From Bacteroidales bacterium (GTDB lineage Bacteria; Bacteroidota; Bacteroidia; Bacteroidales; UBA12077), in NCBI GenBank assembly GCA_021740225.1, contig JAIPAF010000003.1, forward strand, positions 1 through 37,330: a stretch of DNA of 37,330 nucleotides, in the 5' to 3' direction. Below the pieces are notes generated by a model, which saw only the letters and a program-made list of their open reading frames with translations, was not told the DNA's origin and made no database searches. The translations under genes were made by a program, and so were the position numbers. Of this stretch, positions 19,516-31,420 are shown in pieces. Every line of letters starts with the position of its first letter. The first letter of the stretch is position 1.

Positions 19516-20997
19516 ATGATTCTAAAACGCTTTATTGCTATCTTTTTTTTATCTTTTTTGGTTGTATCAGCCGGCGCACAACAGTTGCTGACACTTGAAG
19601 AAGCGTTGGAAATTGCCAACGACAACAGCCCGGAAGTAAGAAAAAGCCGATTGAACAGGCAACGCAGCAAAAATTTTCTGGATGCGCAAAGGGCTTCGCT
19701 AAAAACCAATTTCAACCTTTCTCTTGAGCCTTTCAACTACTCAAGAGAAGAACGATTTTATGAAATGGAATCCAGGTGGCAAACCACCGAAATGTATTCC
19801 AGCATGGCCAATTTTAGCATTTCTCAGCCAATCACGCTTACAGACGGGGAACTATCCCTGAACAACCGGCTTGCCTGGCAACATTCCACCACGGAAGTAG
19901 GCACACAACTAAACGAAGATATTGCTTTCAGTAACAATTTGTTTCTGCAGTACGAACAGCCCCTGTTCTCCTATAATGAAACCAAACAGAATCTGGAAGA
20001 ACTGGAGCTGGATTACGAAAGGTCAGACATACAATACAGGCTTCAAAAGCTAAACACAGAGGTACAGGTAACCAGAAGCTATTATAATTTGTATGCCTCT
20101 CAAATGGCATTGGAAATATCCAGAGAAGAACTGAAAAATCAGAAGGAGAATTACCAGGTTGTGCAAAACAAAGTAGATGCCGATTTACTGGCCTTAGAGG
20201 AACTTTATCAGGCGGAAGTTAACCTGACCTCGGCACGTTCACAGGTTTATACCCGTGAAGTTCAGCTCCAAAATGCGAAGGATGATTTCAAACAACTCAT
20301 TGGAATGGATCTGGACAGAAATTTCAGGGTTGAACTCGATATAGAGATCGATTCGGTAGATATAAACATGGATAAAGCCATACAGAATGCCCTTGGATCT
20401 CGCCTGGAGATCCGCAACCGGGAGATCGAACTTCAAAACGCCAAGTTCAACCTCATTGAAACCAGTGACCGGAATAAATTTAAAGGAAATGTATCGGTTT
20501 CTGTTGGTGTTCAAGGAGTAGACAAACAATTTGCTGATATGTACGATGTACCTACAACCAGCCCTTCCATTTCGCTAAGCTTTAACGTTCCCATCTGGGA
20601 CTGGGGGGCTCGCGAAGCCCGTATAAAAGCTGCTAAATTGAATGTACAATCCAATCGGATTGATTTGAATGAGGAGTCCAAATCGATTAACCTGGGCATT
20701 CGCCAAACTATACGGAACCTAAGGAATTATAAGAATCAGATAGAGATAGCCAGAAAGAATCAAAAGAATGCCCAACTGACTTATGATATCAACCTGGAAC
20801 GGTACAACAGGGGTGATCTTACCGGAATGGATATTCAGCAATACCAGAACCAACTAAGTCAGGCGAAAATGGATCTGACCACAGCCCTCATCGATTATAA
20901 AATGGAACTGCTTAATCTTAAAATGCAGACGCTGTACGATTTTATAGAAAATGAACCGTTGCTCCCCAAAAATGTAGTTAACAGTATTTTAGAATAA
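19516..20997 (+). CDS. TolC family outer membrane efflux protein
   Basis: Signal peptide; LTLEEALEIA..NSP, YEQPLF, V.RSYYNL, ERYNRG, VPIWDWG; two-repeat OEP architecture. Confidence 0.9.
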   Translation: MILKRFIAIFFLSFLVVSAGAQQLLTLEEALEIANDNSPEVRKSRLNRQRSKNFLDAQRASLKTNFNLSLEPFNYSREERFYEMESRWQTTEMYSSMANFSISQPITLTDGELSLNNRLAWQHSTTEVGTQLNEDIAFSNNLFLQYEQPLFSYNETKQNLEELELDYERSDIQYRLQKLNTEVQVTRSYYNLYASQMALEISREELKNQKENYQVVQNKVDADLLALEELYQAEVNLTSARSQVYTREVQLQNAKDDFKQLIGMDLDRNFRVELDIEIDSVDINMDKAIQNALGSRLEIRNREIELQNAKFNLIETSDRNKFKGNVSVSVGVQGVDKQFADMYDVPTTSPSISLSFNVPIWDWGAREARIKAAKLNVQSNRIDLNEESKSINLGIRQTIRNLRNYKNQIEIARKNQKNAQLTYDINLERYNRGDLTGMDIQQYQNQLSQAKMDLTTALIDYKMELLNLKMQTLYDFIENEPLLPKNVVNSILE

Positions 20998-21002
20998 TAA
21001 AC

Positions 21003-22088
21003 ATGAATTGTATGCATACAAAAACTTTTTTCTTTTTACGAATCCTTTCCGCTATCACCCTCTTTGCGATGATGATTTCCGGGTGTAACCAGGGAGAGAT
21101 CAGCAGAGACAGTGATGTTGCCGTACCTGTGTCGGTTACGGAAGCCAATTATGAAGCCATTAGTGAATTCCTGCAAACCACCGGCACAGTGAATGCTGTT
21201 CATTCAGCAGAGCTGGTGACCAAAGTGGAAGGAGATTATTTTCTTCAAACCAATCCGAGAACCAACCAAAAGTTTGCCCTGGGTGATCAGATAAAAGAAG
21301 GGGAAACACTAATAAAGCTAAAAAACAGGGAATATGAGCTGGGTATTCAGATTGAATCAGTAAAACTGGAGCAGAAAATAGCCAAACAGGAATATGAAAA
21401 GCAACAAGCTCTATACGAAAAGGGGGGGGTGACCCTTCGGGAACTGACCAATGCCGAAAAAACTTATATCAATGCCCAGAATGCTTTAGAAGAAGCCAAA
21501 CTGAACCTGAACAAGCTTTCCGTAACCGCTCCCATCACCGGATTTATCACTCAACTACCCTACTATACCCCGGGAACCCATATGAATGCCAATACCAACG
21601 TTGCCAAAATAATGGATTACCGTGAATTGATGCTGGAAGTGAGTTTTCCGGAGAAAACCCTGCCGATAATTCAGACCGGCCAACAAGTAAGAATAAATCA
21701 TTATTCCCTGGATACAGCGCAAGCCCTTGAGGGTAGAGTAACGGAGATTTCTCCTGCTGTGGATCCGGACACCCGTATGTTTGATGCCAAAATCCGGGTA
21801 CAGAATCAACAAAAACGGCTTCGGCCGGGAATGTTCGTAAAAGCCAATGTTATGGTAGAACATAAAGACAGTGTGATCACTCTGCCGCGGGAAATCGTGC
21901 TCGAGAGAAACGACCGGCAGATCGTATATGTGGTCCAGCAAGACCGGGCCCATGAAAGAAATGTAGTAACGGGAATTGAATCCGGCGACAGGGTTGAGAT
22001 CATTGACGGGATTGAAGAGGATGAACGGGTGGTCACCGACGGCTACGAAACACTGAGGGACCGGAGTAGGGTGAAGGTGCTGCAATGA
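21003..22088 (+). CDS. RND efflux periplasmic adaptor (MFP), lipoprotein
   Basis: Lipobox-like ISGC; VTAPITGFI, ISPAVDPDTRMF, LRPGMFV, V.TGIE....VEI..G, VVTDG; start 21003 or 21012. Confidence 0.92.
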   Translation: MNCMHTKTFFFLRILSAITLFAMMISGCNQGEISRDSDVAVPVSVTEANYEAISEFLQTTGTVNAVHSAELVTKVEGDYFLQTNPRTNQKFALGDQIKEGETLIKLKNREYELGIQIESVKLEQKIAKQEYEKQQALYEKGGVTLRELTNAEKTYINAQNALEEAKLNLNKLSVTAPITGFITQLPYYTPGTHMNANTNVAKIMDYRELMLEVSFPEKTLPIIQTGQQVRINHYSLDTAQALEGRVTEISPAVDPDTRMFDAKIRVQNQQKRLRPGMFVKANVMVEHKDSVITLPREIVLERNDRQIVYVVQQDRAHERNVVTGIESGDRVEIIDGIEEDERVVTDGYETLRDRSRVKVLQ

Positions 22089-22089
22089 A

Positions 22090-22141
22090 GAATGTGAGAA
22101 TGCGTGAATGCGAGAATGTGAGAATGCATGAATGCGAGAAT
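22090..22141 (+). repeat. 8-bp tandem array (GAATGYRW) x6.5 with 24-bp higher-order period
   Basis: GAATGTGA GAATGCGT GAATGCGA GAATGTGA GAATGCAT GAATGCGA GAAT, starting immediately after the MFP stop. Confidence 0.92.
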
Positions 22142-22167
22142 AAAATAATAAAATTTAAGTAAGAAAG

Positions 22168-22539
22168 ATGACCGAAAAAGAAATTTTTATTGAAAAGTTG
22201 AAGAAAATTACAAAAGAATTCGCTGTAGATATAATTTTCTTTTGTAATGCATTGAAGACCTGCAAAGCATCATCGGTTGTTGAATATCAGCTTGTAAAAT
22301 GTGCAACCTCAACGGGGGCAAATTACAGATCCGCTTGCAGAGCGAGATCCAAAGCTGAATTTTTTAGTAAAATTTGCATTGTTTTAGAAGAAGCCGATGA
22401 GTCGGACTACTGGCTTGAGATAATAGATACTGCCGGATTATCTGATAACAAAAAAGAATTGACAAGACTCAGAAAAGAAGCCAATGAAATAATAAGAATC
22501 ATAGGAAAAGCAAAAAATTCATCTTTTCCTAACAAATAG
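22168..22539 (+). CDS. Four helix bundle protein (23S rRNA intervening-sequence protein family, TIGR02436-like)
   Basis: 123 aa; QL.K.ATS.GANYRSACRARSKAEFFSKI.IVLEEADES.YWLEI, EANEI..I; visibly AT-richer than its neighbours. Confidence 0.92.
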   Translation: MTEKEIFIEKLKKITKEFAVDIIFFCNALKTCKASSVVEYQLVKCATSTGANYRSACRARSKAEFFSKICIVLEEADESDYWLEIIDTAGLSDNKKELTRLRKEANEIIRIIGKAKNSSFPNK

Positions 22540-22583
22540 TTAAAATTCAACTATTCATGCGTACAATCATTAAAATCTCCATA

Positions 22584-22655
22584 CTTTCACTCATTCATAC
22601 ATTGAAGCATTCAAACATTCATGCATTCACGCATTTTAGCATCCAAGCATTTCAT
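22584..22655 (-). repeat. Degenerate 8-bp tandem array (CATTCAnG) x9, inverted relative to 22090-22141
   Basis: CTTTCACT CATTCATA CATTGAAG CATTCAAA CATTCATG CATTCACG CATTTTAG CATCCAAG CATTTCAT; its reverse complement contains AATGCGTGAATGC and GAATGCATGAATG, both found in the upstream array. Confidence 0.85.
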
Positions 22656-22705
22656 AACTAATATATCATAACATAAAGAACCACATTACAGATAAAAAGG
22701 ATTCC

Positions 22706-25700
22706 ATGATAAAACTAACCCGCTTCTCAGTAAAATACCCGGTAACCATTACAATGCTTGTTTTTGCAGTCCTGCTTCTCGGTTACATCTCATTTAACCG
22801 CCTGGGGACGGACTTGTTTCCCGATTTAAGAAATCCGCGGTTGTTTGTAGAACTTCATTCCGGAGAAAAACCCCCTTCGGAAATTGAATCGAGGTTTGCA
22901 GAAAACATAGAAAGTCTGGGTATACGCCAAAACGGAGTGACCGATGTTTCCACGGAGATTGGTACAGGAAGGATGTTAACCACCATTCATTATGAATGGG
23001 GACAGGACATGAATGCTGCCTTTCTTGATCTACAAAAAGCACTTTCTTCTGTGGCCACCAATCAGGAAGTGGACGAGCTTAACATCTACCAGAACGATCC
23101 CAACGCCGCACCCATCATGAGGGTAATCGTCAGTAATGCGGACATCAATGATATGAATCTGCTGCGACAGACGGCGGAGAATTATATTTATAACCAGTTG
23201 GTGCGGCTGAATGGAGTGGCCGATGTTGAACTCTCCGGTGAAGAAGAGGCGCAACTGCTCATTCAAACGGAAAGCTATCTTATGGACGCTCACGGTCTAT
23301 CCATGGACGAGATATCTTCCCGTATTCAGGCTTTCAACCGTGATATCAGCGGGGGTACGCTTGAGGAAAAAGGAACGGAATATCTCATCACGGGAGAAAG
23401 TTTATTGGGAAAGGTGGAGGATTTTCGCAACCTGATTGTGGGATACCAGCAGAAAACTTCCAGAAACAATGAGCGCACTCAAATTCCTGTCACCCTTGAA
23501 CAAGTGGCTGATGTGCAAATGAAAAACAAAGACCCTGATAACATGGTTTACTTCAACGGGGAGCGGTGTATCGGACTTGCCATTTACAAGGAGCAGGGCA
23601 AAAACACCGTGGATATAGTAAAATTGGTAGACCAGGCCCTGACTGATTTAAACAAGGCTTTGCCGGGCTACCGGTTCACCGTTGTAGAAAACCAGGGAGA
23701 ATACATTGACCAGGCCATTGGTGAAGTAGAAAACACTGCCCTTATCGGTATTTTATTGGCGGTTTTCGTGCTTTTCCTATTTTTACGGCGATTGCGTGTA
23801 ACGCTCATTGTTTCGGTGGCCATCCCCATATCAATCATTGCCACTTTTAATCTAATGTATTTTAACGGTTTAAGCCTAAATGTAATGACATTGGGTGGTC
23901 TTGCCCTCGGGGCCGGTATGCTGGTGGATAATGCCATTGTAGTAATCGAAAATATATTCCGCCACATCGAAGAGGGTTCCTCTGTGAAAGATGCTGCCAT
24001 ACAAGGCACGGCAGAGATGGGAGGAGCCATTACAGCCTCTACACTCACCACCATCGTAGTATTTTTACCTATTGTATACCTGCATGGTGAATCGGGCGAA
24101 TTATTCAAGGAAGAAGCCTGGACCGTGGCATTTTCTCTCTTGTCCTCTCTTTTTGTTGCTCTGCTTGTTATTCCGGTAATGACGGATAAGTGGATCAAAG
24201 CGGAGCGGAAAAAAACATTGAAATCAGTAAATATAGGGTGGTATGGCCGGTGGCTGAGCGGGATTCTCAACAAGCGATGGCTCGTTATTGGACTCAGTGC
24301 AGGTTTGATCGGCTTTGCCGCTTTATTGCTGCCGCGCGTGGGAAGTGAATTCATGCCCAAATCCCAGGGTGGCGCATTTGCTGTTTCAATAGAACTTCCC
24401 GGCGGTACCCGTTTGGAGAAAACAGCCAGGGTGGGCCGGCAGGTGCAGGCTATGATGGACGATGCCTTTGGTGATAAAGTGTCCTATTATTACCTGCATG
24501 TGGGACCCGGAACTGAAGAAGATGCTGCTACTACAGAACTAATGCAGGGAAGCAACTTCGCCAGCATTCAGGTACAACCCAAAGAGGGGGCGGTCATCCG
24601 CCCCGAAGAGGTGATTGCATTGACCAACTCCTCACTAGGTGATGTATCGGGCCTGAAAATAGAATACAAACAAAAACAAACAAGCCTGGATGAGATTCTG
24701 GGAACCGATGCATCTCCCCTTGTCGTCCAAACTTCCGGAGAAGAGCTGGAACAGATCGAATCGATCACCGAGAATATTCGTAAAGAACTTACAGGCATTG
24801 AAGGATTGTATGACGTAAAAACCAATTTTGATAAGGGCGCACCTGAAATTGAAGTCCGCGTAGACCGGTACCAGGCGGGAATGTACAATATCAGCCTGGA
24901 TCAGATAGTCAATCAGATTGAAAGGCAATTGACCGGAATGGAAATAGGGGAGTTCGACAGGGAAGGAGAGATGACCGATATTACCCTGAAATTACCTGAT
25001 TTGAGCAGAAAAGACCTTGAAGAGCTGGAGTTGAGATCGGGGAATCAGGTTATACGGCTGGACCAGATTGCCACCTTCCATACCGGTCAGTCACCGGGAA
25101 AGATATACCGGGAAAACCAAAAACGGGTGGGTAAAGTAATGGCCCGTATTGAAGAGGATATAACCCTGGATCGTGTGGTCAAAAAAGTAAATGCCAAACT
25201 GGCCGGGATAGAATTCCCAGCCCGTTATCAAACAGAAATCACAGGAGAAGAACAAAAGAGAGCAGAATCTTTCGCAAGTCTAAAATTTGCACTCATACTC
25301 TCCATCATTCTGGTATATATGGTGATGGCCTCGCAATTCGAAAGTCTGCTACATCCCATGACTATTCTGCTTTCACTGCCTCTTGCTTTCACCGGTCCCG
25401 TATTTTTATTTCTTGGAATAGGTGAATCATTTAACATCATAGCATATATTGGCATTATCATGCTGGCAGGAATAGCGGTGAACAACAGCATCATCCTTGT
25501 TGATGCCATCCGCCGGTATCAGCGACAGGGAATGGTAAAGCGGGATGCCATATTACAAGCCGGGCAAAACCGTATAAGACCCATTGTGATGACCAGCATT
25601 ACCACCATTCTGGCGCTATTACCGTTAACCATTGACTTCGGTCAGAGTGCCGAGCTCCGTTCCCCAATGGCCTGGGCTGTTATAGGAGGTTTGATCACAT

Positions 25701-25789
25701 CAACCATCCTTACGCTAGTGACCATCCCTTGCGTGTATTACATTTTTCAGCGAAAAGAAGTATTGTCAAATCCGGAAGATCAGGAATAA
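22706..25789 (+). CDS. RND efflux transporter permease subunit (AcrB/MdtB family)
   Basis: 1027 aa; AIPISII.TF, LN.MTLGGLALG.GMLVDNAIVVIENI, ASTLTT..VFLP, VYMVMASQFES, RIRPIVMT, PMA.AVIGGL. Confidence 0.95.
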   Translation: MIKLTRFSVKYPVTITMLVFAVLLLGYISFNRLGTDLFPDLRNPRLFVELHSGEKPPSEIESRFAENIESLGIRQNGVTDVSTEIGTGRMLTTIHYEWGQDMNAAFLDLQKALSSVATNQEVDELNIYQNDPNAAPIMRVIVSNADINDMNLLRQTAENYIYNQLVRLNGVADVELSGEEEAQLLIQTESYLMDAHGLSMDEISSRIQAFNRDISGGTLEEKGTEYLITGESLLGKVEDFRNLIVGYQQKTSRNNERTQIPVTLEQVADVQMKNKDPDNMVYFNGERCIGLAIYKEQGKNTVDIVKLVDQALTDLNKALPGYRFTVVENQGEYIDQAIGEVENTALIGILLAVFVLFLFLRRLRVTLIVSVAIPISIIATFNLMYFNGLSLNVMTLGGLALGAGMLVDNAIVVIENIFRHIEEGSSVKDAAIQGTAEMGGAITASTLTTIVVFLPIVYLHGESGELFKEEAWTVAFSLLSSLFVALLVIPVMTDKWIKAERKKTLKSVNIGWYGRWLSGILNKRWLVIGLSAGLIGFAALLLPRVGSEFMPKSQGGAFAVSIELPGGTRLEKTARVGRQVQAMMDDAFGDKVSYYYLHVGPGTEEDAATTELMQGSNFASIQVQPKEGAVIRPEEVIALTNSSLGDVSGLKIEYKQKQTSLDEILGTDASPLVVQTSGEELEQIESITENIRKELTGIEGLYDVKTNFDKGAPEIEVRVDRYQAGMYNISLDQIVNQIERQLTGMEIGEFDREGEMTDITLKLPDLSRKDLEELELRSGNQVIRLDQIATFHTGQSPGKIYRENQKRVGKVMARIEEDITLDRVVKKVNAKLAGIEFPARYQTEITGEEQKRAESFASLKFALILSIILVYMVMASQFESLLHPMTILLSLPLAFTGPVFLFLGIGESFNIIAYIGIIMLAGIAVNNSIILVDAIRRYQRQGMVKRDAILQAGQNRIRPIVMTSITTILALLPLTIDFGQSAELRSPMAWAVIGGLITSTILTLVTIPCVYYIFQRKEVLSNPEDQE

Positions 25790-25798
25790 GCCTTCACT

Positions 25799-28700
25799 AT
25801 GAACAAATTTGTAAAGCGAAAAATACTGGTCTCCATGCTGTTCCTGGCTTTAGTCATGCTGGGAATCTTTTCCTATCGATCGATGCCGGTTGAACTATTT
25901 CCAAGCGCCGAAACACCGGTACTCTATGTCCAGGTAAACTACCGTTCCCAAATAAACCCTCATTTTGTGGAAAAGGATGCCATCATTCCCCTGGAGGGGA
26001 TCATCAGTGAAGAAGAAGGTGTTGATGAGCTGGAATCGAACATTTCACAAAGGCGGGCAACCATTGTGGTTACCTTCAGGCAGGATGTGGACATCAACTA
26101 TGCTTATCTGAAGCTGGAGCAAAAGATACAGGAGTTTCAGCGGGAACACCGGGAAAACTATATGGTAAACCTGGTCAAGGTCAATACCGACATGTCCTCC
26201 AACCAGTTTATGACCATCCAGGCGCGGGGTGAAGGCGATATCGACCGGATTCGGAATGTCGTTGATCAGGAGATCCTTTCCGATCTGGTGGCAGTGAATG
26301 GCGTAGGTGATGCTACGGTTCAGGGAGGACAGGAACGATCCGTTGAAGTAATTTTTGATGAGGAAACCTGTGAGGCCCTTCACATCACACCCGGAAGGAT
26401 CAATAACCGGCTCAATATGTATTCCAATCAGCGGCTATATGGCGGGATGGTCTATGATGTGGGCAAACGCTGGATTGTAAACGTATCCGGTGAATTAACC
26501 AGCATCAATGAACTAGGGGATATCATACTGGATGACAACGGTAACGTTCGTCTGCAGGATGTGGCTACAATCAACATGGGAAAAAAAGAGCGGGAAACCA
26601 TCAGCCGTGTAAACGGCATGGAAGCAGTGACCATAACGATCTATAACGACGCCAATGTAAATGATATCACACTCTACCATAAGCTACAGGATGCCATAGA
26701 AAATATTAACTCGGAGATGGCTTCCAATCGAGTTGAACTGGTTATCCAGAGCTGTGAGGCTGAAACCATGGAAGAGAACATGAATCAGATACTCAGCCTT
26801 GCTTTAATCGGCGGATTACTGGCCATCTTCGTCCTATGGATATTCCTGCGGAACATACGTTTGGTAGTTGTTGTGGCGCTTGCGATACCCATTTCCATCT
26901 TCGCCTCGATTAATTTTCTCTATGCTGCCGGCATTACCATCAACACGCTCACTTTAATGGGTGTGGCCCTGGCCATCGGGATGCTCCTGGATAACAGTGT
27001 GGTGGTGCTGGAAAATATCTATCGGTTAAGGACAGAAGGTGCCACTCCAGTAGGTGCTGCATCCGGAGGAACAAGACAGGTGATCCGTGCCGTGACGGCC
27101 GCTACTCTTACAACAATAGCCGTTTTTCTGCCCTTTGCATTTTCTACAGAGTTCTTCATTAAACTCTTGGGGAACAATGTGGGGTTTTCCATTATTTTTA
27201 CCTTGCTGGTGTCGCTTCTTGTGGCACTAATATTTATACCGATGGTGGTATACCAATTCCTCAAAGCCCGCAGGAAAGCCCTGACCCTCCATTCGATAAA
27301 TTTTCGAAAACCAATAATTCGCGGATACCTGATATTGTTAAGATTTTGTCTGCGCCATCCTGCCCAGGTGCTCTTTACCATGGTCTTGCTATTTTTTGCC
27401 GCAGTAGTGATTAGTCTGTCAGTTAGTGTAAACACCCTACAGGAAGCGGAAACAGACAGTTTTCGGGTTTCAATCACCATGCCGGGGGGTACAACCCTGA
27501 AAACCTCCGATGAAACGGTAAGCAATATGGAGGACGATCTCGGAAATATAGAGGAGATTGATGAAGTAGTCAGCAACATTGAAGCAGAAGAAGCTTCCAT
27601 GATCATCCAATTGAAGGAAGAGTTTAAAAAGATCAACGACCGGAGTGTAGCTCAAATAAAAGATGATGTACTGAATAGGCTGGATGTATATAACAACGTT
27701 CATGTTAGCATTACGGACATGACCTCGTCTGATGACAGCAACTTCAATATTGGAGGCGGTGCTTCAGATTTTTTGAGTTTCATGGGTGTCGGACAACAAA
27801 CGGAAGAGGTGCTCATCAAGGGTTCGAATTATGAAGATATGGTTTTGGTTGGTGAAAATGTAGAGTATATACTTTCTGAAGAATCGGATAATGTAACCTC
27901 GGCGCGCCTGCAAATATCGCGTGAACAGCCGGAGGTGAGGGTACTTTTCGACCAACGCCTAATGGAGGCTTTAAATATAGATTACACCAGTGTGCAACAG
28001 GAGATGAACGCTTTCTCCAGGCAACTCGAGAGTGGTATGACCTTTAAACAGGGTGATGAGGAATACGATATTACCATACGCAGCAAACAGGCTGAAGAAA
28101 ATCAAAAAGAACAAAAAGGCATGGAAGATCTCCGGCATTTGCTCATAGATGCTGACAATGATAGTGTTGTTTCCTCCCATCATCTAATGGATTTCAGTTC
28201 CCTGCGCTATAGTGAAGGAATTGCTTCCATTCACCGGCAAAACAGGGAAAAAAGCATCTCGGTAAATTACCGCTTTTCATCTGAAATCAATGAAGACAAT
28301 GATTTGCTGGAGAGTGCCCGTGCCGAAGTAGACGAACTGATTTCCGGTTTATACGTTCCACCGGGAGTAGCGGTAGAAGTACAGCATGAGCAGGATCAAT
28401 ACGGTGAATTCAAAATGCTTATTCTTGCTGCCTTTATACTGATCTATATGATCCTTGCTTCCGTATTTGAAAGCTTTTCCACCCCATTCGTCCTGTTGTT
28501 TTCCATACCCTTGGCGGCCATCGGATCGCTCATGGGGCTCATTTTAACCGGAAATTCCCTGCTCAATGCCAATACCCTTATTGGGTTTCTCATCCTCCTG
28601 GGAGTGGTGGTCAATAATGGGATCATACTGATTGATTTTGTGCAAAATATGAGGTTCAATGGAGCCAGGATTGCACGAGCCGTTATCAGTGCAGGATTGC

Positions 28701-30514
28701 TTCGTGTGCGCCCGATTCTCATTACCGTGATCACCACAGTTATAGGAATGCTTCCACTGGCCATGGGACAGGGCGAATATGTAGGTAGCATTGGAGCTCC
28801 TTTTGCCATCACAGTGATTGGCGGGTTGCTGTTTTCCACCTTGTTCACACTGGTAATCATTCCCACCGCCTACTACGCAATGGAAACCACCCTTCGTTGG
28901 TTTGCTTCGCTTCCGCTTCACATCAAGATCATCAACTGGATGCTTTTGCCGGCAGGTATAGTGCTGGCCATCATAGAGGCGGATACCCTGCTGTGGCAAA
29001 TGGTTGGCGTGGTTGCCGTATTGACTGTTGTGCCTGCAACGACCTGGTTTTTCACCGAAAGCCTGCGTAAAGCATCAGCGGACGTAATCGACAGAAATAG
29101 TGACATCGTTATCCGTATCCGAAACCTGGTAAAAATCTATGACCGGCCTTCAAGACCCCTGCGTGAATGGCTGGGGAACAAGCATCTGAATGAACTCCTT
29201 GGTATGGGAGAAGAAAAACAAAATTCACGTCAGGAGCTGATATGGCAGATGCCGCTTCTGGGCTTCCTCGGATGGTTTGCCTGGTTTTATCAGTCGGGGG
29301 GATTTTGGACATACATCTTATCTGTGGCGTTATGGTTTTACTTAATTTTCCTGATTAAACGTCTCATTACCCTGTTTCCCTCATCCCGTGTTAAAAGATG
29401 GTTTTCCCGGCTGCATTGGATTGTTCTTCGGTTTTTCCCTCTTGTTATACTCGGAGTCTATCAAATCAAATTCACGAATACGGGAGCCACGGTTGTCTGG
29501 GGATTACTCACTTATTTCCTTCTGGGCATTTATCTTACTTCACAACACCTCAAGGAAAACCGGGTGAACACCGCCCGCATCAAAGGGCGTTTTGCCGGTC
29601 TGAAAAAACTATGGATAAACCTTGTGCGCGCCGTGCCGATGATCGGTCGTGAGCGAAAGCCTTTCAAAGCGCTGAAGAGTGTCTCGATGGATATCGGTCA
29701 TGGAATGTTTGGCCTGCTTGGCCCCAACGGAGCAGGCAAGACAACCCTGATGCGGATTATATGTGGTGTGCTGGAGCAGAGCTATGGGAAGATCACCATC
29801 AACGAGATCGATACCCTTGAAAAACGGGAAGAATTGCAGGGGTTGATCGGATATTTGCCCCAGGAATTCGGCATGTATGAAAATATGACCGCCAGGGATT
29901 ACCTGGATTACCAGGCCATACTCAAAGGTTTGCACAATCCGCAAACCCGTAAGGAAAGGGTGGACAATGTATTGCAGTCGGTTCACATGATTTCCAATGC
30001 CAATAAAAAGATCGGTTCGTTCTCAGGGGGTATGAAACAACGGATAGGAATTGCCCAGGTATTGCTGAACCTACCCCGTATACTGGTGGTGGATGAGCCA
30101 ACAGCCGGACTGGATCCCCGTGAACGCATCCGCTTCCGAAATCTTTTGGTAGAGCTGAGCAGTGAACGGGTAGTGATCTTCTCTACCCATATTATCGAAG
30201 ATATTGCCAGTTCGTGCAACCAACTGGCAGTGCTTGACAAAGGAAACCTGAAATATTACGGAAAACCGGCTGAGATGGCATCACTGGCAAAAAACAGGGT
30301 ATGGCAGTTTGATGTTCCGGCAGAACAATTTGAAGGGATAGCCCAGGATTTGAAAGTGGTTCATCATATAAGAAAAGGAGAAAATATCCGTGTGAGGGTA
30401 GTGAATCCCGACAAGCCGCATGAAAATGCCCAAAATGTTACTGCTGTGCTTGAAGACGCCTATATATGGCTCCTGAACTTCAGCGGAAAAAACAATACAA
30501 TTCAATCATCTTAA
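25799..30514 (+). CDS. RND permease fused to a C-terminal ABC ATP-binding domain
   Basis: aa 1 to about 1030 full RND (GMLLDNSVVVLENI, YMILASVFES, RVRPILIT); extra TM helices; then GPNGAGKTT, GYLPQ, FSGGM, VVDEPT, FSTH in the same uninterrupted 1571-aa ORF. Confidence 0.9.
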   Translation: MNKFVKRKILVSMLFLALVMLGIFSYRSMPVELFPSAETPVLYVQVNYRSQINPHFVEKDAIIPLEGIISEEEGVDELESNISQRRATIVVTFRQDVDINYAYLKLEQKIQEFQREHRENYMVNLVKVNTDMSSNQFMTIQARGEGDIDRIRNVVDQEILSDLVAVNGVGDATVQGGQERSVEVIFDEETCEALHITPGRINNRLNMYSNQRLYGGMVYDVGKRWIVNVSGELTSINELGDIILDDNGNVRLQDVATINMGKKERETISRVNGMEAVTITIYNDANVNDITLYHKLQDAIENINSEMASNRVELVIQSCEAETMEENMNQILSLALIGGLLAIFVLWIFLRNIRLVVVVALAIPISIFASINFLYAAGITINTLTLMGVALAIGMLLDNSVVVLENIYRLRTEGATPVGAASGGTRQVIRAVTAATLTTIAVFLPFAFSTEFFIKLLGNNVGFSIIFTLLVSLLVALIFIPMVVYQFLKARRKALTLHSINFRKPIIRGYLILLRFCLRHPAQVLFTMVLLFFAAVVISLSVSVNTLQEAETDSFRVSITMPGGTTLKTSDETVSNMEDDLGNIEEIDEVVSNIEAEEASMIIQLKEEFKKINDRSVAQIKDDVLNRLDVYNNVHVSITDMTSSDDSNFNIGGGASDFLSFMGVGQQTEEVLIKGSNYEDMVLVGENVEYILSEESDNVTSARLQISREQPEVRVLFDQRLMEALNIDYTSVQQEMNAFSRQLESGMTFKQGDEEYDITIRSKQAEENQKEQKGMEDLRHLLIDADNDSVVSSHHLMDFSSLRYSEGIASIHRQNREKSISVNYRFSSEINEDNDLLESARAEVDELISGLYVPPGVAVEVQHEQDQYGEFKMLILAAFILIYMILASVFESFSTPFVLLFSIPLAAIGSLMGLILTGNSLLNANTLIGFLILLGVVVNNGIILIDFVQNMRFNGARIARAVISAGLLRVRPILITVITTVIGMLPLAMGQGEYVGSIGAPFAITVIGGLLFSTLFTLVIIPTAYYAMETTLRWFASLPLHIKIINWMLLPAGIVLAIIEADTLLWQMVGVVAVLTVVPATTWFFTESLRKASADVIDRNSDIVIRIRNLVKIYDRPSRPLREWLGNKHLNELLGMGEEKQNSRQELIWQMPLLGFLGWFAWFYQSGGFWTYILSVALWFYLIFLIKRLITLFPSSRVKRWFSRLHWIVLRFFPLVILGVYQIKFTNTGATVVWGLLTYFLLGIYLTSQHLKENRVNTARIKGRFAGLKKLWINLVRAVPMIGRERKPFKALKSVSMDIGHGMFGLLGPNGAGKTTLMRIICGVLEQSYGKITINEIDTLEKREELQGLIGYLPQEFGMYENMTARDYLDYQAILKGLHNPQTRKERVDNVLQSVHMISNANKKIGSFSGGMKQRIGIAQVLLNLPRILVVDEPTAGLDPRERIRFRNLLVELSSERVVIFSTHIIEDIASSCNQLAVLDKGNLKYYGKPAEMASLAKNRVWQFDVPAEQFEGIAQDLKVVHHIRKGENIRVRVVNPDKPHENAQNVTAVLEDAYIWLLNFSGKNNTIQSS

Positions 30515-30540
30515 AACAAGGAGGAAATTTTCAAACCAGT

Positions 30541-31254
30541 ATGGTAAAACTGATAAAACATTGGCTTATCAACTCCGTGCAAATCACCCGGCACAACCTG
30601 AAAATCATATTCGGGGATAAATTTCCCTTCTTCCTGTTGGGGGCATTTGCCATATTCATCTTCATCGTGTTAATCAATTTGTTCGGGGGTGATCCGTTCA
30701 CCAGTGAATCGGTTTATTCACTGCTGGTCTTTGAAGGGATCATCATCGTATTTTTCCCCACCATCTATGCGGTACAGACGGATATTGACAAACGGACCAT
30801 AGAGATTCTTTTCGGCATTCCCGATTACCGTTATAAAGTATGGCTAGTACGCCTTCTGATCGCCTTCATCGTATGCTGGGTTCTTCTGGCGGTACTGGCC
30901 CTGATGTGCTATTTCGCACTGGTCAGTTTTCCCGTGGGCACCATGATCTATTATGTCATCTTTCCGGTTTTTGCCCTGGGAAGCCTGGGATTCCTCATTG
31001 CAACCCTGGTAAAAAACGGAAACAGCGCTGCGGTTGTAGCTATAATCATTGGTTTGGGCTTATGGGTATTATCCGAGGCATTGGTAGATAGTCAGTGGAA
31101 CGTCTTTCTCAACCCGTTTGATGAGGCCGATATGGCCGGACAAATATGGGAAGCTACCATAAGGAAGAACCGCCTGTTCCTTTTCGTTGCCGGAGTGGTA
31201 TTTCTTGTGGGTGGTTTACTAGGTCTCCAGAACCGGGAAGGGTTTATGCAGTAA
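30541..31254 (+). CDS. ABC-2-type transporter permease
   Basis: About 6 hydrophobic helices; D.D.RTIEILFGIPDYRYKVW..RL loop typical of ABC-2 TMDs. Start ATG 30541 preferred over 30466, which overlaps the upstream gene. Confidence 0.7.
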   Translation: MVKLIKHWLINSVQITRHNLKIIFGDKFPFFLLGAFAIFIFIVLINLFGGDPFTSESVYSLLVFEGIIIVFFPTIYAVQTDIDKRTIEILFGIPDYRYKVWLVRLLIAFIVCWVLLAVLALMCYFALVSFPVGTMIYYVIFPVFALGSLGFLIATLVKNGNSAAVVAIIIGLGLWVLSEALVDSQWNVFLNPFDEADMAGQIWEATIRKNRLFLFVAGVVFLVGGLLGLQNREGFMQ

Positions 31255-31268
31255 AATTGTTTGAAAAG

Positions 31269-31420
31269 AGTTTGAGGGTTTGACAGAAGTTTGAGGGTTG
31301 AGCCATTGATGGTTATTTATTGTCATTGATGGTCATTAAGTACCCATTTGTTGCCATTCAGTGGTTAATTCGATGGTCATTCAGTGGTCATTCGATTGTA
31401 ATTCAGGAACATTGATTACC
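31269..31420 (+). repeat. Intergenic degenerate tandem repeats: AGTTTGAGGGTT x2, then about 10 units of 10-12 bp (GGTCATT-core)
   Basis: 12-mers at 31269-31280 and 31288-31299; then AGCCATTGAT GGTTATTTAT TGTCATTGAT GGTCATTAAG ... TGCCATTCAGT GGTTAATTCGAT GGTCATTCAGT GGTCATTCGAT TGTAATTCAGG. Confidence 0.75.

Follow-up and report, generated by a model that had tools for sequence, protein, structure and literature searches.

Why should a small gene for a predicted four-helix-bundle protein lie between two efflux-pump genes, framed by mirror-image arrays of an 8-nucleotide repeat? The locus was found in a 37,330-nucleotide stretch of a Bacteroidales genome (assembly GCA_021740225.1, contig JAIPAF010000003.1; hereafter the window), and all of its features lie on the + strand. 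A preliminary description, based on sequence alone, reported that the two arrays could pair in several registers and loop out the gene, that the cassette separates the MFP and RND genes, which are normally adjacent, and that it resembles an intervening sequence (IVS) of 23S rRNA placed inside an mRNA.

To test the observation we first examined the locus itself. The upstream gene, an RND periplasmic adaptor (MFP; 21003-22088; TIGR01730, 204.5 bits, with a further HlyD_D23 match), ends with the stop codon TGA at 22086-22088, and the 5' array begins at the next base. TRF assigned 22089-22141 a period of 8 with 6.6 copies of GAATGYRW (core AATG) at 80% matches, and also a period of 24 with 2.2 copies at 96%. 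A leader rich in A/T (22142-22167) separates this array from the ATG, and the relatives inspected likewise show a short, mostly A/T-rich leader. The ORF at 22168-22539 encodes 123 residues scoring 74.3 bits on TIGR02436 (cut-off 24; residues 13-117 on profile positions 3-106 of 109) and 46.1 bits on PF05635 (cut-off 33.8), the '23S rRNA-intervening sequence protein' family. A spacer with degenerate CATT/ATTCA units (22540-22579), representing the inner, decayed part of the 3' arm, is followed by the C-rich 3' array at 22580-22655, which is the reverse complement of the 5' arm. Here TRF gave 22580-22629 and 22592-22651 as period 8 with 6.2 and 7.5 copies at 71% matches (consensus CATTCAAG); the nine CATTCAnG copies previously counted therefore require degenerate units, and TRF supports about 7.5. 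A final spacer (22656-22705) precedes the RND permease gene (22706-25789; ACR_tran, 716.8 bits). No terminator-like site was found in 21800-22900, and no TAnnTTTG, the -7 motif of Bacteroidetes promoters, was found on the + strand inside 22089-22705.

The two arrays can pair in six alternative registers between 22090-22141 and 22586-22651, each of 35 to 50 nt and 71 to 79% complementary, so that the stems are imperfect. Folding of 22080-22710 as RNA gave -139.5 kcal/mol compared with -112.5 ± 5.2 for shuffled sequences (z -5.25; 0 of 20 shuffles as stable), and in both the minimum free energy and centroid folds the outer stem is made by the two arrays and encloses the ORF. As a control for chance, 300 random 372-bp windows of the same genome were scored by comparing the upstream flank with the reverse-complemented downstream flank. 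One reached z≥5 and one had a TRF array on both sides, although this control is mostly coding DNA and gives only a rough background. MFP and RND are otherwise close neighbours, being separated by 57, 80, 129 and 158 bp in four congeners that lack the gene. Thus, the reported observation is confirmed.

We next asked whether the arrangement is peculiar to this locus. Using the same comparison of flanks (z≥5), inverted arms were found at 19 of 29 testable loci in relatives; at 52 of 75 in the window's own subfamily, drawn from Bacteroidales, Flavobacteriales, Cytophagales, Saprospirales, Chlorobiota and one Thiohalospira; at 53 of 76 in a second subfamily (L001), spanning Bacteroidota, Chloroflexota, Acidobacteria, Verrucomicrobia and others; and at 17 of 22 in five cyanobacteria. 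Inverted short-period arrays therefore flank about 70% of the family members examined, while about 30% show no clear inverted arms.

The repeat unit follows the protein subfamily. With groups defined by protein similarity only, the window's subfamily showed period 8/16 in 126 of 155 flanks and AATG in 126, whereas the L001 subfamily showed period 7/14 in 79 of 156, period 8/16 in 5, AGT in 72 (within a 7-nt xAGT-type unit) and AATG in 6. Period-6 TAAGGC-type and period-7 GTTTAAA-type units go with two further subfamilies. However, AATG arrays also flank a protein only 33% identical to that of the window, so the core is shared by more than one narrow subfamily. The arms of one locus resemble each other more than they resemble the arms of other loci (0.677 against 0.571 ± 0.014; 0 of 500 permutations reached the observed value).

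The arrays also possess a polarity, the 5' arm having G>C in 152 of 171 arrays and the 3' arm C>G in 127 of 159. The gene is co-oriented with both neighbours in 56 of 64 loci in one set and 14 of 17 in another, with 1 of 64 fully opposite. To look for selection on RNA pairing, we examined the mismatches between arms. These were mainly transversions (397 and 108), and wobble-compatible mismatches were not biased to the sense strand (76 against 72 and 46 against 33; sign tests p 0.27 and 1.0). A cruder comparison of sense and antisense duplex energies over whole 250-nt flanks was noisy and also not significant (19 against 10, p 0.27). These results give no support for selection on RNA pairing as such.

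Arrays without the gene are dispersed in the same genomes. The window's genome has 11 AATG/CATT arrays in 8-nt register, against 0 to 2 for 12 control tetramers, with 9 AATG/CATT array loci besides the cassette. Two Xanthomonas genomes each have one family gene, between accB and accC, flanked by GGGAATC units, the heptamer reported as an abundant intergenic repeat of unknown function (PMC4692102). In Dokdonella and Luteimonas GGGATTC units are visible, but the ORF bounds used ran through the arrays and these two loci are not counted. GGTAATT windows number 1000 and 624 in the two cyanobacteria that carry a GGTAATT cassette, against 0, 0 and 15 in the other three. A strict one-to-one match between dispersed units and resident cassettes was not borne out, however. 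It fits for GGTAATT and for AAGGGGA, although for AAGGGGA the reversed-pattern control is the same repeat and hence no control, but not for TTCAAAA, where the genome with the most TTCAAAA windows (G043, 472 windows) has no TTCAAAA cassette among its 5 family matches. Another genome, G028, has 59 AATG windows and no TIGR02436 match. We also considered whether short tandemly repeated repetitive (STRR) arrays, with the unit CCCCAGT, generally sit next to a family gene. This was rejected, since 78 of 80 CCCCAGT loci had no family ORF within 400 bp; the converse, that family genes sit inside such arrays, holds.

The history of the cassette was then addressed. In Nostoc linckia one array-gene-array unit was copied whole to a second replicon: two loci (L344 and L348) encode 99% identical proteins, and their nucleotide similarity starts and ends at the outer edges of the arrays with unrelated flanks. 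At the window's locus, conversely, the cassette is old, vertically inherited and not a recent insertion, being orthologous at the same position in two congeners (G010 and G009), which keep the arrays, and decaying by deletion in some species, being reduced to relics in four other congeners. The protein is under purifying selection (dN/dS 0.03 to 0.12 against five relatives). Its closest solved relative is 2RLD (E 1e-12), and it has a profile match to 2GSC, each with five chains. In an alignment of 32 sequences, the columns of a polar face, QxxRxxxSxxxNxxE plus a later E, are at least 90% conserved; the window protein possesses Q41, S48, N52 and E78, but K44 in place of R and S55 in place of E. 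The protein has no known catalytic or nucleic-acid-binding motif tested here. A search with PADLOC gave only a 14-bit hit at E 0.006, and an Rfam search of 21500-23200 gave no rRNA or other convincing match, the only hit being a chance-level snoRNA match at E 0.93.

Taken as a whole, the interpretation in the preliminary description is partly supported. The cassette has the anatomy of an IVS carrying an S23p-family ORF, although it sits in an operon, and repeat and protein covary. Two findings set beforehand as grounds for rejection, that other family members lack inverted arrays and that relatives carry the gene at this position without repeats, were both contradicted. A compact mobile unit without a transposase finds support in the single recent Nostoc linckia copy, but paralogues within a genome are mostly very divergent, indicating that transposition is rare. 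The proposed RNA processing, protein binding and tuning of the downstream RND genes remain inferences.

We consider it more likely than not that the locus belongs to a widespread class of repeat-armed cassettes that we did not find described, of which the ORF-bearing IVS of 23S rRNA is the same kind of element. What the analysis itself establishes is the family-wide architecture, the tracking of period and core with protein subfamily, the placement between co-oriented genes and near-constant co-orientation with them, copying as one unit, the dispersal of gene-less arrays of the same unit in the same genomes, the purifying selection on the protein and the age of the cassette at this locus. The mechanism, by contrast, is inferred in the absence of RNA data for this organism. 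In this view the promoterless cassette would be read through from the efflux operon, and the two arms would pair in the transcript in any of several registers into a long imperfect duplex that loops out the ORF. As in rRNA intervening sequences, this duplex would be a substrate for RNase III, for which the genome encodes a gene, making the insertion tolerable to the host transcript. The subfamily-specific core, separated by variable spacers at a fixed 6- to 8-nt period, would be recognised by the cassette's own protein; given the five chains of solved relatives, roughly one unit per protomer is plausible. This would link the gene to the dispersed arrays much as a RAYT gene is linked to its REPINs.

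Precedents exist for parts of this view. In the IVS of Coxiella burnetii (helix 45; ORF-bearing IVSs occur also in Leptospira), complementary termini form a 28-bp stem that loops out the ORF and is cut by RNase III, and 2 to 3 tandem GACAGAT heptamers, of strain-variable copy number, lie just upstream of an ORF of the same family, without a transposase; the S23p protein, however, seems not to be made in vivo (PMC4990558). The present element lies between MFP and RND ORFs rather than in a 23S rRNA helix (9, 25 or 45), and its arms are long arrays of 8-nt units rather than a near-perfect stem. The STRR heptamers of Nostocales and the GGGAATC and GGGGA(C/T)T arrays of Xanthomonas and Anabaena are likewise intergenic arrays of 7-nt units that hug stop codons and often occur as convergent pairs (PMC4692102). 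Family genes in Nostoc linckia and Tolypothrix are flanked by GGGGACT/GGGGATT arrays, whereas the window has octamers in a Bacteroidota genome. Those repeats were described without any associated protein: passages of PMC4692102 gave no match for 'S23', and we found no paper making this link in searches that did not extend to supplements and in which Ralph & McClelland 1993 and Vioque 1997 appeared only as cited references. In REPIN-RAYT systems a low-copy gene is flanked by inverted copies of a repeat that is also dispersed without the gene, repeat type covaries with gene lineage and inheritance is mostly vertical; these features are shared here, the first of them being seen in the window's genome, in Xanthomonas and for GGTAATT in cyanobacteria, with G028 and TTCAAAA in G043 as counter-cases. 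RAYT, however, is a Y1 transposase and REPINs are palindromic doublets, whereas the window's gene matched only PF05635/TIGR02436, is without a known catalytic site, and its repeats are tandem arrays. Foldback transposons of eukaryotes have long terminal inverted repeats composed of short tandem units, some copies carrying a central ORF and many not, but are associated with a transposase, and no homology is implied. As a mechanistic analogy only, the TRAP ring oligomer, of unrelated fold, reads the short core of (G/U)AG repeats in the trp leader at a fixed period with variable spacers, a repeat pattern seen here as AATG plus 4 low-information positions.

A broader reading, which we put forward tentatively, is that TIGR02436 proteins are the missing partners of the short tandem arrays that litter intergenic DNA in many bacteria, including the Nostocales STRR heptamers, the Xanthomonas GGGAATC heptamers, and the AATG octamers and xAGT heptamers seen here in Bacteroidota and other phyla. 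Each pentamer would read its own 6- to 8-nt unit, about one per protomer, from a gene inside a pair of its own arrays, and the partnership would maintain or spread gene-less arrays in the manner of RAYT and REPINs but without a known enzyme; ORF-bearing IVSs would simply be copies that landed in rRNA helices. Such a link gives a testable partner both to a very common small protein family of unknown function and to heptamer arrays of unexplained origin in cyanobacteria and xanthomonads, reportedly first described about 1990 and with a role still to be elucidated (PMC4692102), with many natural specificity pairs to compare. It also explains why these genes turn up inside unrelated operons, including cas operons (PMC3936711), why they often lie at contig ends (assembly breaks within arrays may be the cause), and where ORF-bearing rRNA intervening sequences may come from. 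If the protein reads 6- to 8-nt units in a programmable way, it would be a new kind of sequence-specific nucleic-acid binder. For the local operon, the cassette is a candidate processing or insulation point between the adaptor and pump genes.

Of the alternatives, the one that survives best, though we think it unlikely, is a DNA-level foldback-type mobile element in which the arrays are terminal inverted repeats built from multiple binding sites, the protein binds them as DNA and recruits host recombination or repair functions to move or copy the unit, and any RNA stem is a by-product. The exact copying of one unit to a second replicon, the many contexts occupied (101 clusters among 193 neighbour proteins) and the strand-symmetric polarity, with the G-rich arm 5' on either strand, which is the logic of terminal inverted repeats, favour it. 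Furthermore, the lack of G-U asymmetry and predominance of transversions suggest that the motif is conserved rather than the pairing, gene-less hairpins and single arms look like MITE-type derivatives, and solo arrays at the two junctions examined are present in some congeners and absent in others. However, no transposase or other catalytic domain was detected, only 1 near-identical pair occurs among the 35 cassettes of five genomes (median paralogue identity 20 to 27%), and cassettes at the MFP-RND and ABC-HlyD junctions diverge in step with their flanking genes. Additionally, no target-site duplication is visible at L344/L348, and strong co-orientation with host operons is not required of a DNA transposon.

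Less likely still, the arrays might be ordinary host simple-sequence repeats made by polymerase slippage, perhaps serving as G-quadruplex, mRNA-end or terminator-like elements independent of the protein, with the gene merely tending to land in, or be tolerated within, pre-existing hairpin loops. Solo arrays do far outnumber gene-bearing ones and exist where no cognate gene was detected (G028; TTCAAAA in G043), and published work treats GGGAATC and GGGGA(C/T)T arrays as quadruplex-forming repeats within 0 to 50 bp of stop codons (PMC4692102). Slippage alone, however, does not explain why period and core track the protein subfamily across phyla, why both arms carry the same unit in inverted orientation, or why the single family gene of a Xanthomonas genome carries exactly that genome's dispersed unit; moreover, GAATGYRW has no G-runs, so quadruplex formation is not general.

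An accessory (Avd-type) role in a diversity-generating retroelement, with the repeats belonging to that system, is very unlikely. PF05635 is the Pfam family most often found with the reverse transcriptases of such elements and resembles Avd, the folds being homologous (4DWL against 2GSC; PMC10053308), but no RVT_1 match was found in the genome, which is 57% complete, the neighbours are OMP, MFP and RND genes, and 21950-22800, the stretch scanned for repeats, holds short-unit arrays and nothing else, with no template/variable repeat pair. Finally, a chance repeat or assembly artefact can be all but dismissed, since the cassette with its arrays is present at the same junction in the assemblies of two other species and in two sequencing runs and only 1 of 300 random windows scored as high, even though short-read contigs of both runs break inside the 5' array. 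One 303-nt contig from these runs joins array-like ends around 149 other nucleotides, and we read it as another locus rather than an excision product.

The window carries an efflux operon on the + strand, comprising an outer-membrane factor (19516-20997), a periplasmic adaptor (MFP, 21003-22088), an RND permease (22706-25789) and a second RND-like ORF (25799-30514). The last of these is a single ORF of 1571 aa that joins a full AcrB-type RND permease (residues 2-1028) to a C-terminal ABC ATPase domain (about residues 1290-1500, GldA/DrrA-like), and represents either an unusual fusion or a merged gene call. Between MFP and RND lies a 617-bp insert. An array of (GAATGYRW) x6.6 at 22089-22141 begins at the base after the MFP stop codon and is followed by a 26-nt A/T-rich leader and a 123-aa ORF at 22168-22539. 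After a 40-nt spacer comes a CATTCAnG array of about 7.5 units, ending near 22655. Profile searches identified the ORF as a clear member of TIGR02436/PF05635, with scores of 74.3 and 46.1 bits respectively. The two arrays are reverse complements of each other in six registers, with 71-79% complementarity, and in an RNA fold of positions 22080-22710 they form the outer stem that encloses the ORF (-139.5 kcal/mol, z -5.25, with 0 of 20 shuffles as stable). No terminator-like site and no Bacteroidetes-type -7 motif was found within the cassette. The observation of a small gene bracketed by mutually inverted tandem arrays, made in a preliminary description of this sequence, is confirmed.

We next asked whether this layout extends to other members of the family. 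The window's genome, which is 57% complete, has two more family genes; one is flanked by (GCAGTAR) x15.6 upstream and (CTGCCTA) x10.4 downstream, while the other has (AGTAGTG) x5.9 upstream only. The family occurs in 35 of 41 related genomes, with up to 16 matches each. Many of these genes lie within a few hundred bases of contig ends (for example at positions 87-398 of contig C239 in related genome G012, 74-397 of C196 in G002 and 204-524 of C9 in G021), and in two sequencing runs Logan contigs break inside the window's 5' array. The arrays probably fragment short-read assemblies, so that MAGs may undercount these genes.

Each locus was scored by aligning the 300-350-nt upstream flank to the reverse complement of the downstream flank, against shuffles. 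Among 32 loci from relatives, an upstream array was present in 29 of 32 and a downstream array in 21 of 32 (two of the misses had under 35 nt of flank), and 19 of 29 testable loci reached z>=5. For the 80 loci closest to the window protein (59-92% identity; six orders, plus one gammaproteobacterium), the corresponding values were 64 of 79 upstream, 66 of 76 downstream and 52 of 75 at z>=5. For 80 loci of a second subfamily, here termed L001 (52-91% identity; many phyla), they were 58 of 77, 50 of 79 and 53 of 76. Of 22 full-length genes in five cyanobacterial genomes, 17 reached z>=5; 7 partial matches were set aside, of which 6 were viewed. By contrast, only 1 of 300 random windows of the window's own genome reached this value, and an array was present on both sides in 1 of 300. 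The loci are not independent events, since some share orthologous contexts, but even so the 193 neighbour proteins fall into 101 clusters. In the related genome G016 (contig C1, 3847000-3856500; locus L135), three family genes of different subfamilies, each with its own arrays, sit at successive junctions about 2.2-2.6 kb apart in one gene cluster (see also loci L137-L141), and pairs 1.5-2.3 kb apart recur in G012, G009, G033 and G004.

Comparison of these loci revealed that the period and core of the repeat follow the protein. In the window's subfamily, 126 of 155 flanks have period 8/16 and 126 contain AATG, whereas in the L001 subfamily 79 of 156 have period 7/14, 5 have period 8/16, 72 contain AGT and 6 contain AATG. 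Two other subfamilies go with period-6 TAAGGC-like and period-7 GTTTAAA-like units. Outside the core, the four spacer positions carry 0.04-0.64 bits. On the gene's strand the 5' arm is G-rich in 152 of 171 arrays and the 3' arm is C-rich in 127 of 159; the layout is strand-symmetric, and thus this polarity belongs to the hairpin and not to the gene. The cassette lies between co-oriented genes and points the same way in 56 of 64 and 14 of 17 cases, with one case fully opposite; recurrent hosts are MFP-RND, FtsX/MacB-ABC and other operons. The arms of one locus are more alike than the arms of different loci (0.677 against 0.571 +/- 0.014). Paralogues within a genome are very divergent, with a median identity of 20-27%, and each has its own unit. 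Variant layouts also occur (loci L069, L085, L070, L073, L063 and L512): in one, the gene lies between two complete AATG/CATT hairpins; in another, an extra AATG array sits between the stop codon and the CATT arm; and in a third, CATT arrays appear on both sides.

To assess mobility, we compared cassettes within genomes. A single near-identical pair, L344 and L348 in Nostoc linckia, was found among the 35 cassettes of five genomes. Their similarity (94% over 511 nt) starts at the outer edge of the 5' array and ends at the outer edge of the 3' array, while the flanks are unrelated and lie on different replicons. Thus, array-gene-array can be copied as one unit. At the window's junction, conversely, the cassette is old. 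The related genomes G010 and G009 hold orthologues (92% and 90% protein identity) with arrays. G015 keeps two 5' units and the leader, fused to the downstream flank in what looks like a deletion across an ATCA microhomology, and G008, G005 and G013 keep array relics without the gene. The protein is under purifying selection, with dN/dS of 0.03-0.12 against five relatives. The homologue in G006 (67% identity; locus L516, contig C35, 25871-26233) carries two in-frame TGA codons while its genome keeps 81 AATG-array windows, and is either a pseudogene with persisting arrays or a recoding case.

At the ABC-HlyD junction that hosts the second cassette of the window's genome, four species carry the cassette, G014 keeps only a 5'-array relic and G006 has a clean 47-nt junction. 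At the same junction G011 (locus L374, 2400-3330, on contig C113) has two tandem identical 463-bp units, each encoding a 130-aa TIGR04256 GxxExxY protein (137.7 bits) preceded by ACACAGATN x2 and followed by its approximate reverse complement. These short inverted repeats are the units' own, raising the possibility of a second small-gene family with the same cassette logic.

Arrays without a gene were also examined. The window's genome has 11 AATG/CATT arrays in 8-nt register, against 0-2 for 12 control tetramers, and these include gene-less hairpins (contigs C28, C25 and C85) and single arms directly after stop codons. Solo arrays at two such sites are present in some congeners and absent in others. 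All 5 genomes that have a close homologue of the window protein have AATG arrays, but of the 36 genomes without one, 7 also have them. Among those, G039 has an AATG-armed gene whose protein is only 33% identical, and G028 has 59 AATG-array windows but no TIGR02436 match. In G028 (loci L513 and L514, contigs C65 and C183) the arrays occur as direct repeats of a composite unit, consisting of an AATGRGAT array plus a conserved spacer of about 170 nt that contains a GCCGTTGGC/GCCAACGGC hairpin.

The cyanobacterial family genes are flanked by near-perfect heptamer arrays. Among them are GGGGACT/GGGGATT, the STRR-type unit. The same unit is the GGGGA(C/T)T of Rehm et al. (PMC4692102). Conversely, only 2 of 80 (CCCCAGT)x4 loci have a family ORF within 400 bp, and most arrays are therefore solo. 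Two Xanthomonas genomes each have one family gene, between accB and accC, flanked by GGGAATC units in inverted orientation. Dokdonella and Luteimonas also have one gene at that junction with GGGATTC units visible, although our ORF bounds failed at these loci. Rehm et al. describe GGGAATC as an abundant intergenic repeat with 70-75 convergent pairs and unknown function, naming no protein in the sections consulted.

Counts of array windows across the five cyanobacterial genomes (G041, G042, G043, G044 and G045, in that order) were then compared with the resident cassettes. GGTAATT gave 0, 1000, 0, 624 and 15 windows, in keeping with the presence of a GGTAATT cassette in G042 and G044. AAGGGGA gave 176, 25, 0, 0 and 0, again fitting the presence of a cassette of that unit in G041. 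TTCAAAA, however, gave 40, 190, 472, 5 and 9, which does not fit, since a cassette of that unit is present in G042 only. The Coxiella IVS is reported to have a 28-bp terminal stem cut by RNase III and 2-3 tandem GACAGAT heptamers before the S23p ORF, their number varying by strain (PMC4990558). The family has been noted inside cas operons, without mention of repeats (PMC3936711), and our literature searches found no paper joining the family to such arrays.

The architecture, its covariation with the protein, the copying of the unit and its age at this junction are shown by these comparisons, whereas how the cassette works, including RNA cleavage, binding by the protein and any effect on the RND genes, is inferred. 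We infer first that the cassette is promoterless and read through from the operon. Second, its arms would pair in the transcript into a long imperfect duplex which, as in rRNA intervening sequences, would be cut or at least insulated by RNase III, whose gene is present. Third, a fixed period with a conserved core and free spacers, specific to each protein subfamily, points to sequence-specific recognition by the only product that the cassette encodes; solved relatives of this protein have five chains. Against an RNA-pairing function as the main constraint, mismatches between the arms are mostly transversions and show no sense-strand G-U excess, which keeps a DNA-level, foldback-like reading alive. 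A strict dependence of arrays on the gene is opposed by arrays that exist without it, as in G028 and for TTCAAAA in G043.

The proposal in the preliminary description that this is an IVS-like cassette is right in anatomy. The larger finding is that this anatomy, with subfamily-specific repeat units, is general for TIGR02436, and that it connects the family to STRR-type arrays. Elements of the intervening-sequence type are already known, and we regard the present cassette as a variant of this kind, with a substantial chance that it represents a new protein-repeat partnership.

Two further array types were observed in the window's genome. Period-8 ACGAAAGN arrays lie directly after stop codons at C6:2592-2671, C45:7432-7490 and C18:13174-13292, with their complement at C118:15096-15166, and no family gene was detected nearby; related GACGA-type octamers flank family genes in G003, G014 and a GSL MAG (loci L022, L028 and L216). 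A second dispersed array family has a period of 10-11 and a GTCATT/AATGAC core, and no associated gene was identified. In the window it lies at 31259-31406, after the ABC-2-like membrane ORF at 30466-31254 and next to (GTTTGARRR) repeats, and elsewhere in the genome it occurs at C22:15452-15628, C24:17303, C36:5275, C40:1780 and 2725, C44:12869, C7:4884, C83:6409 and C84:5992.
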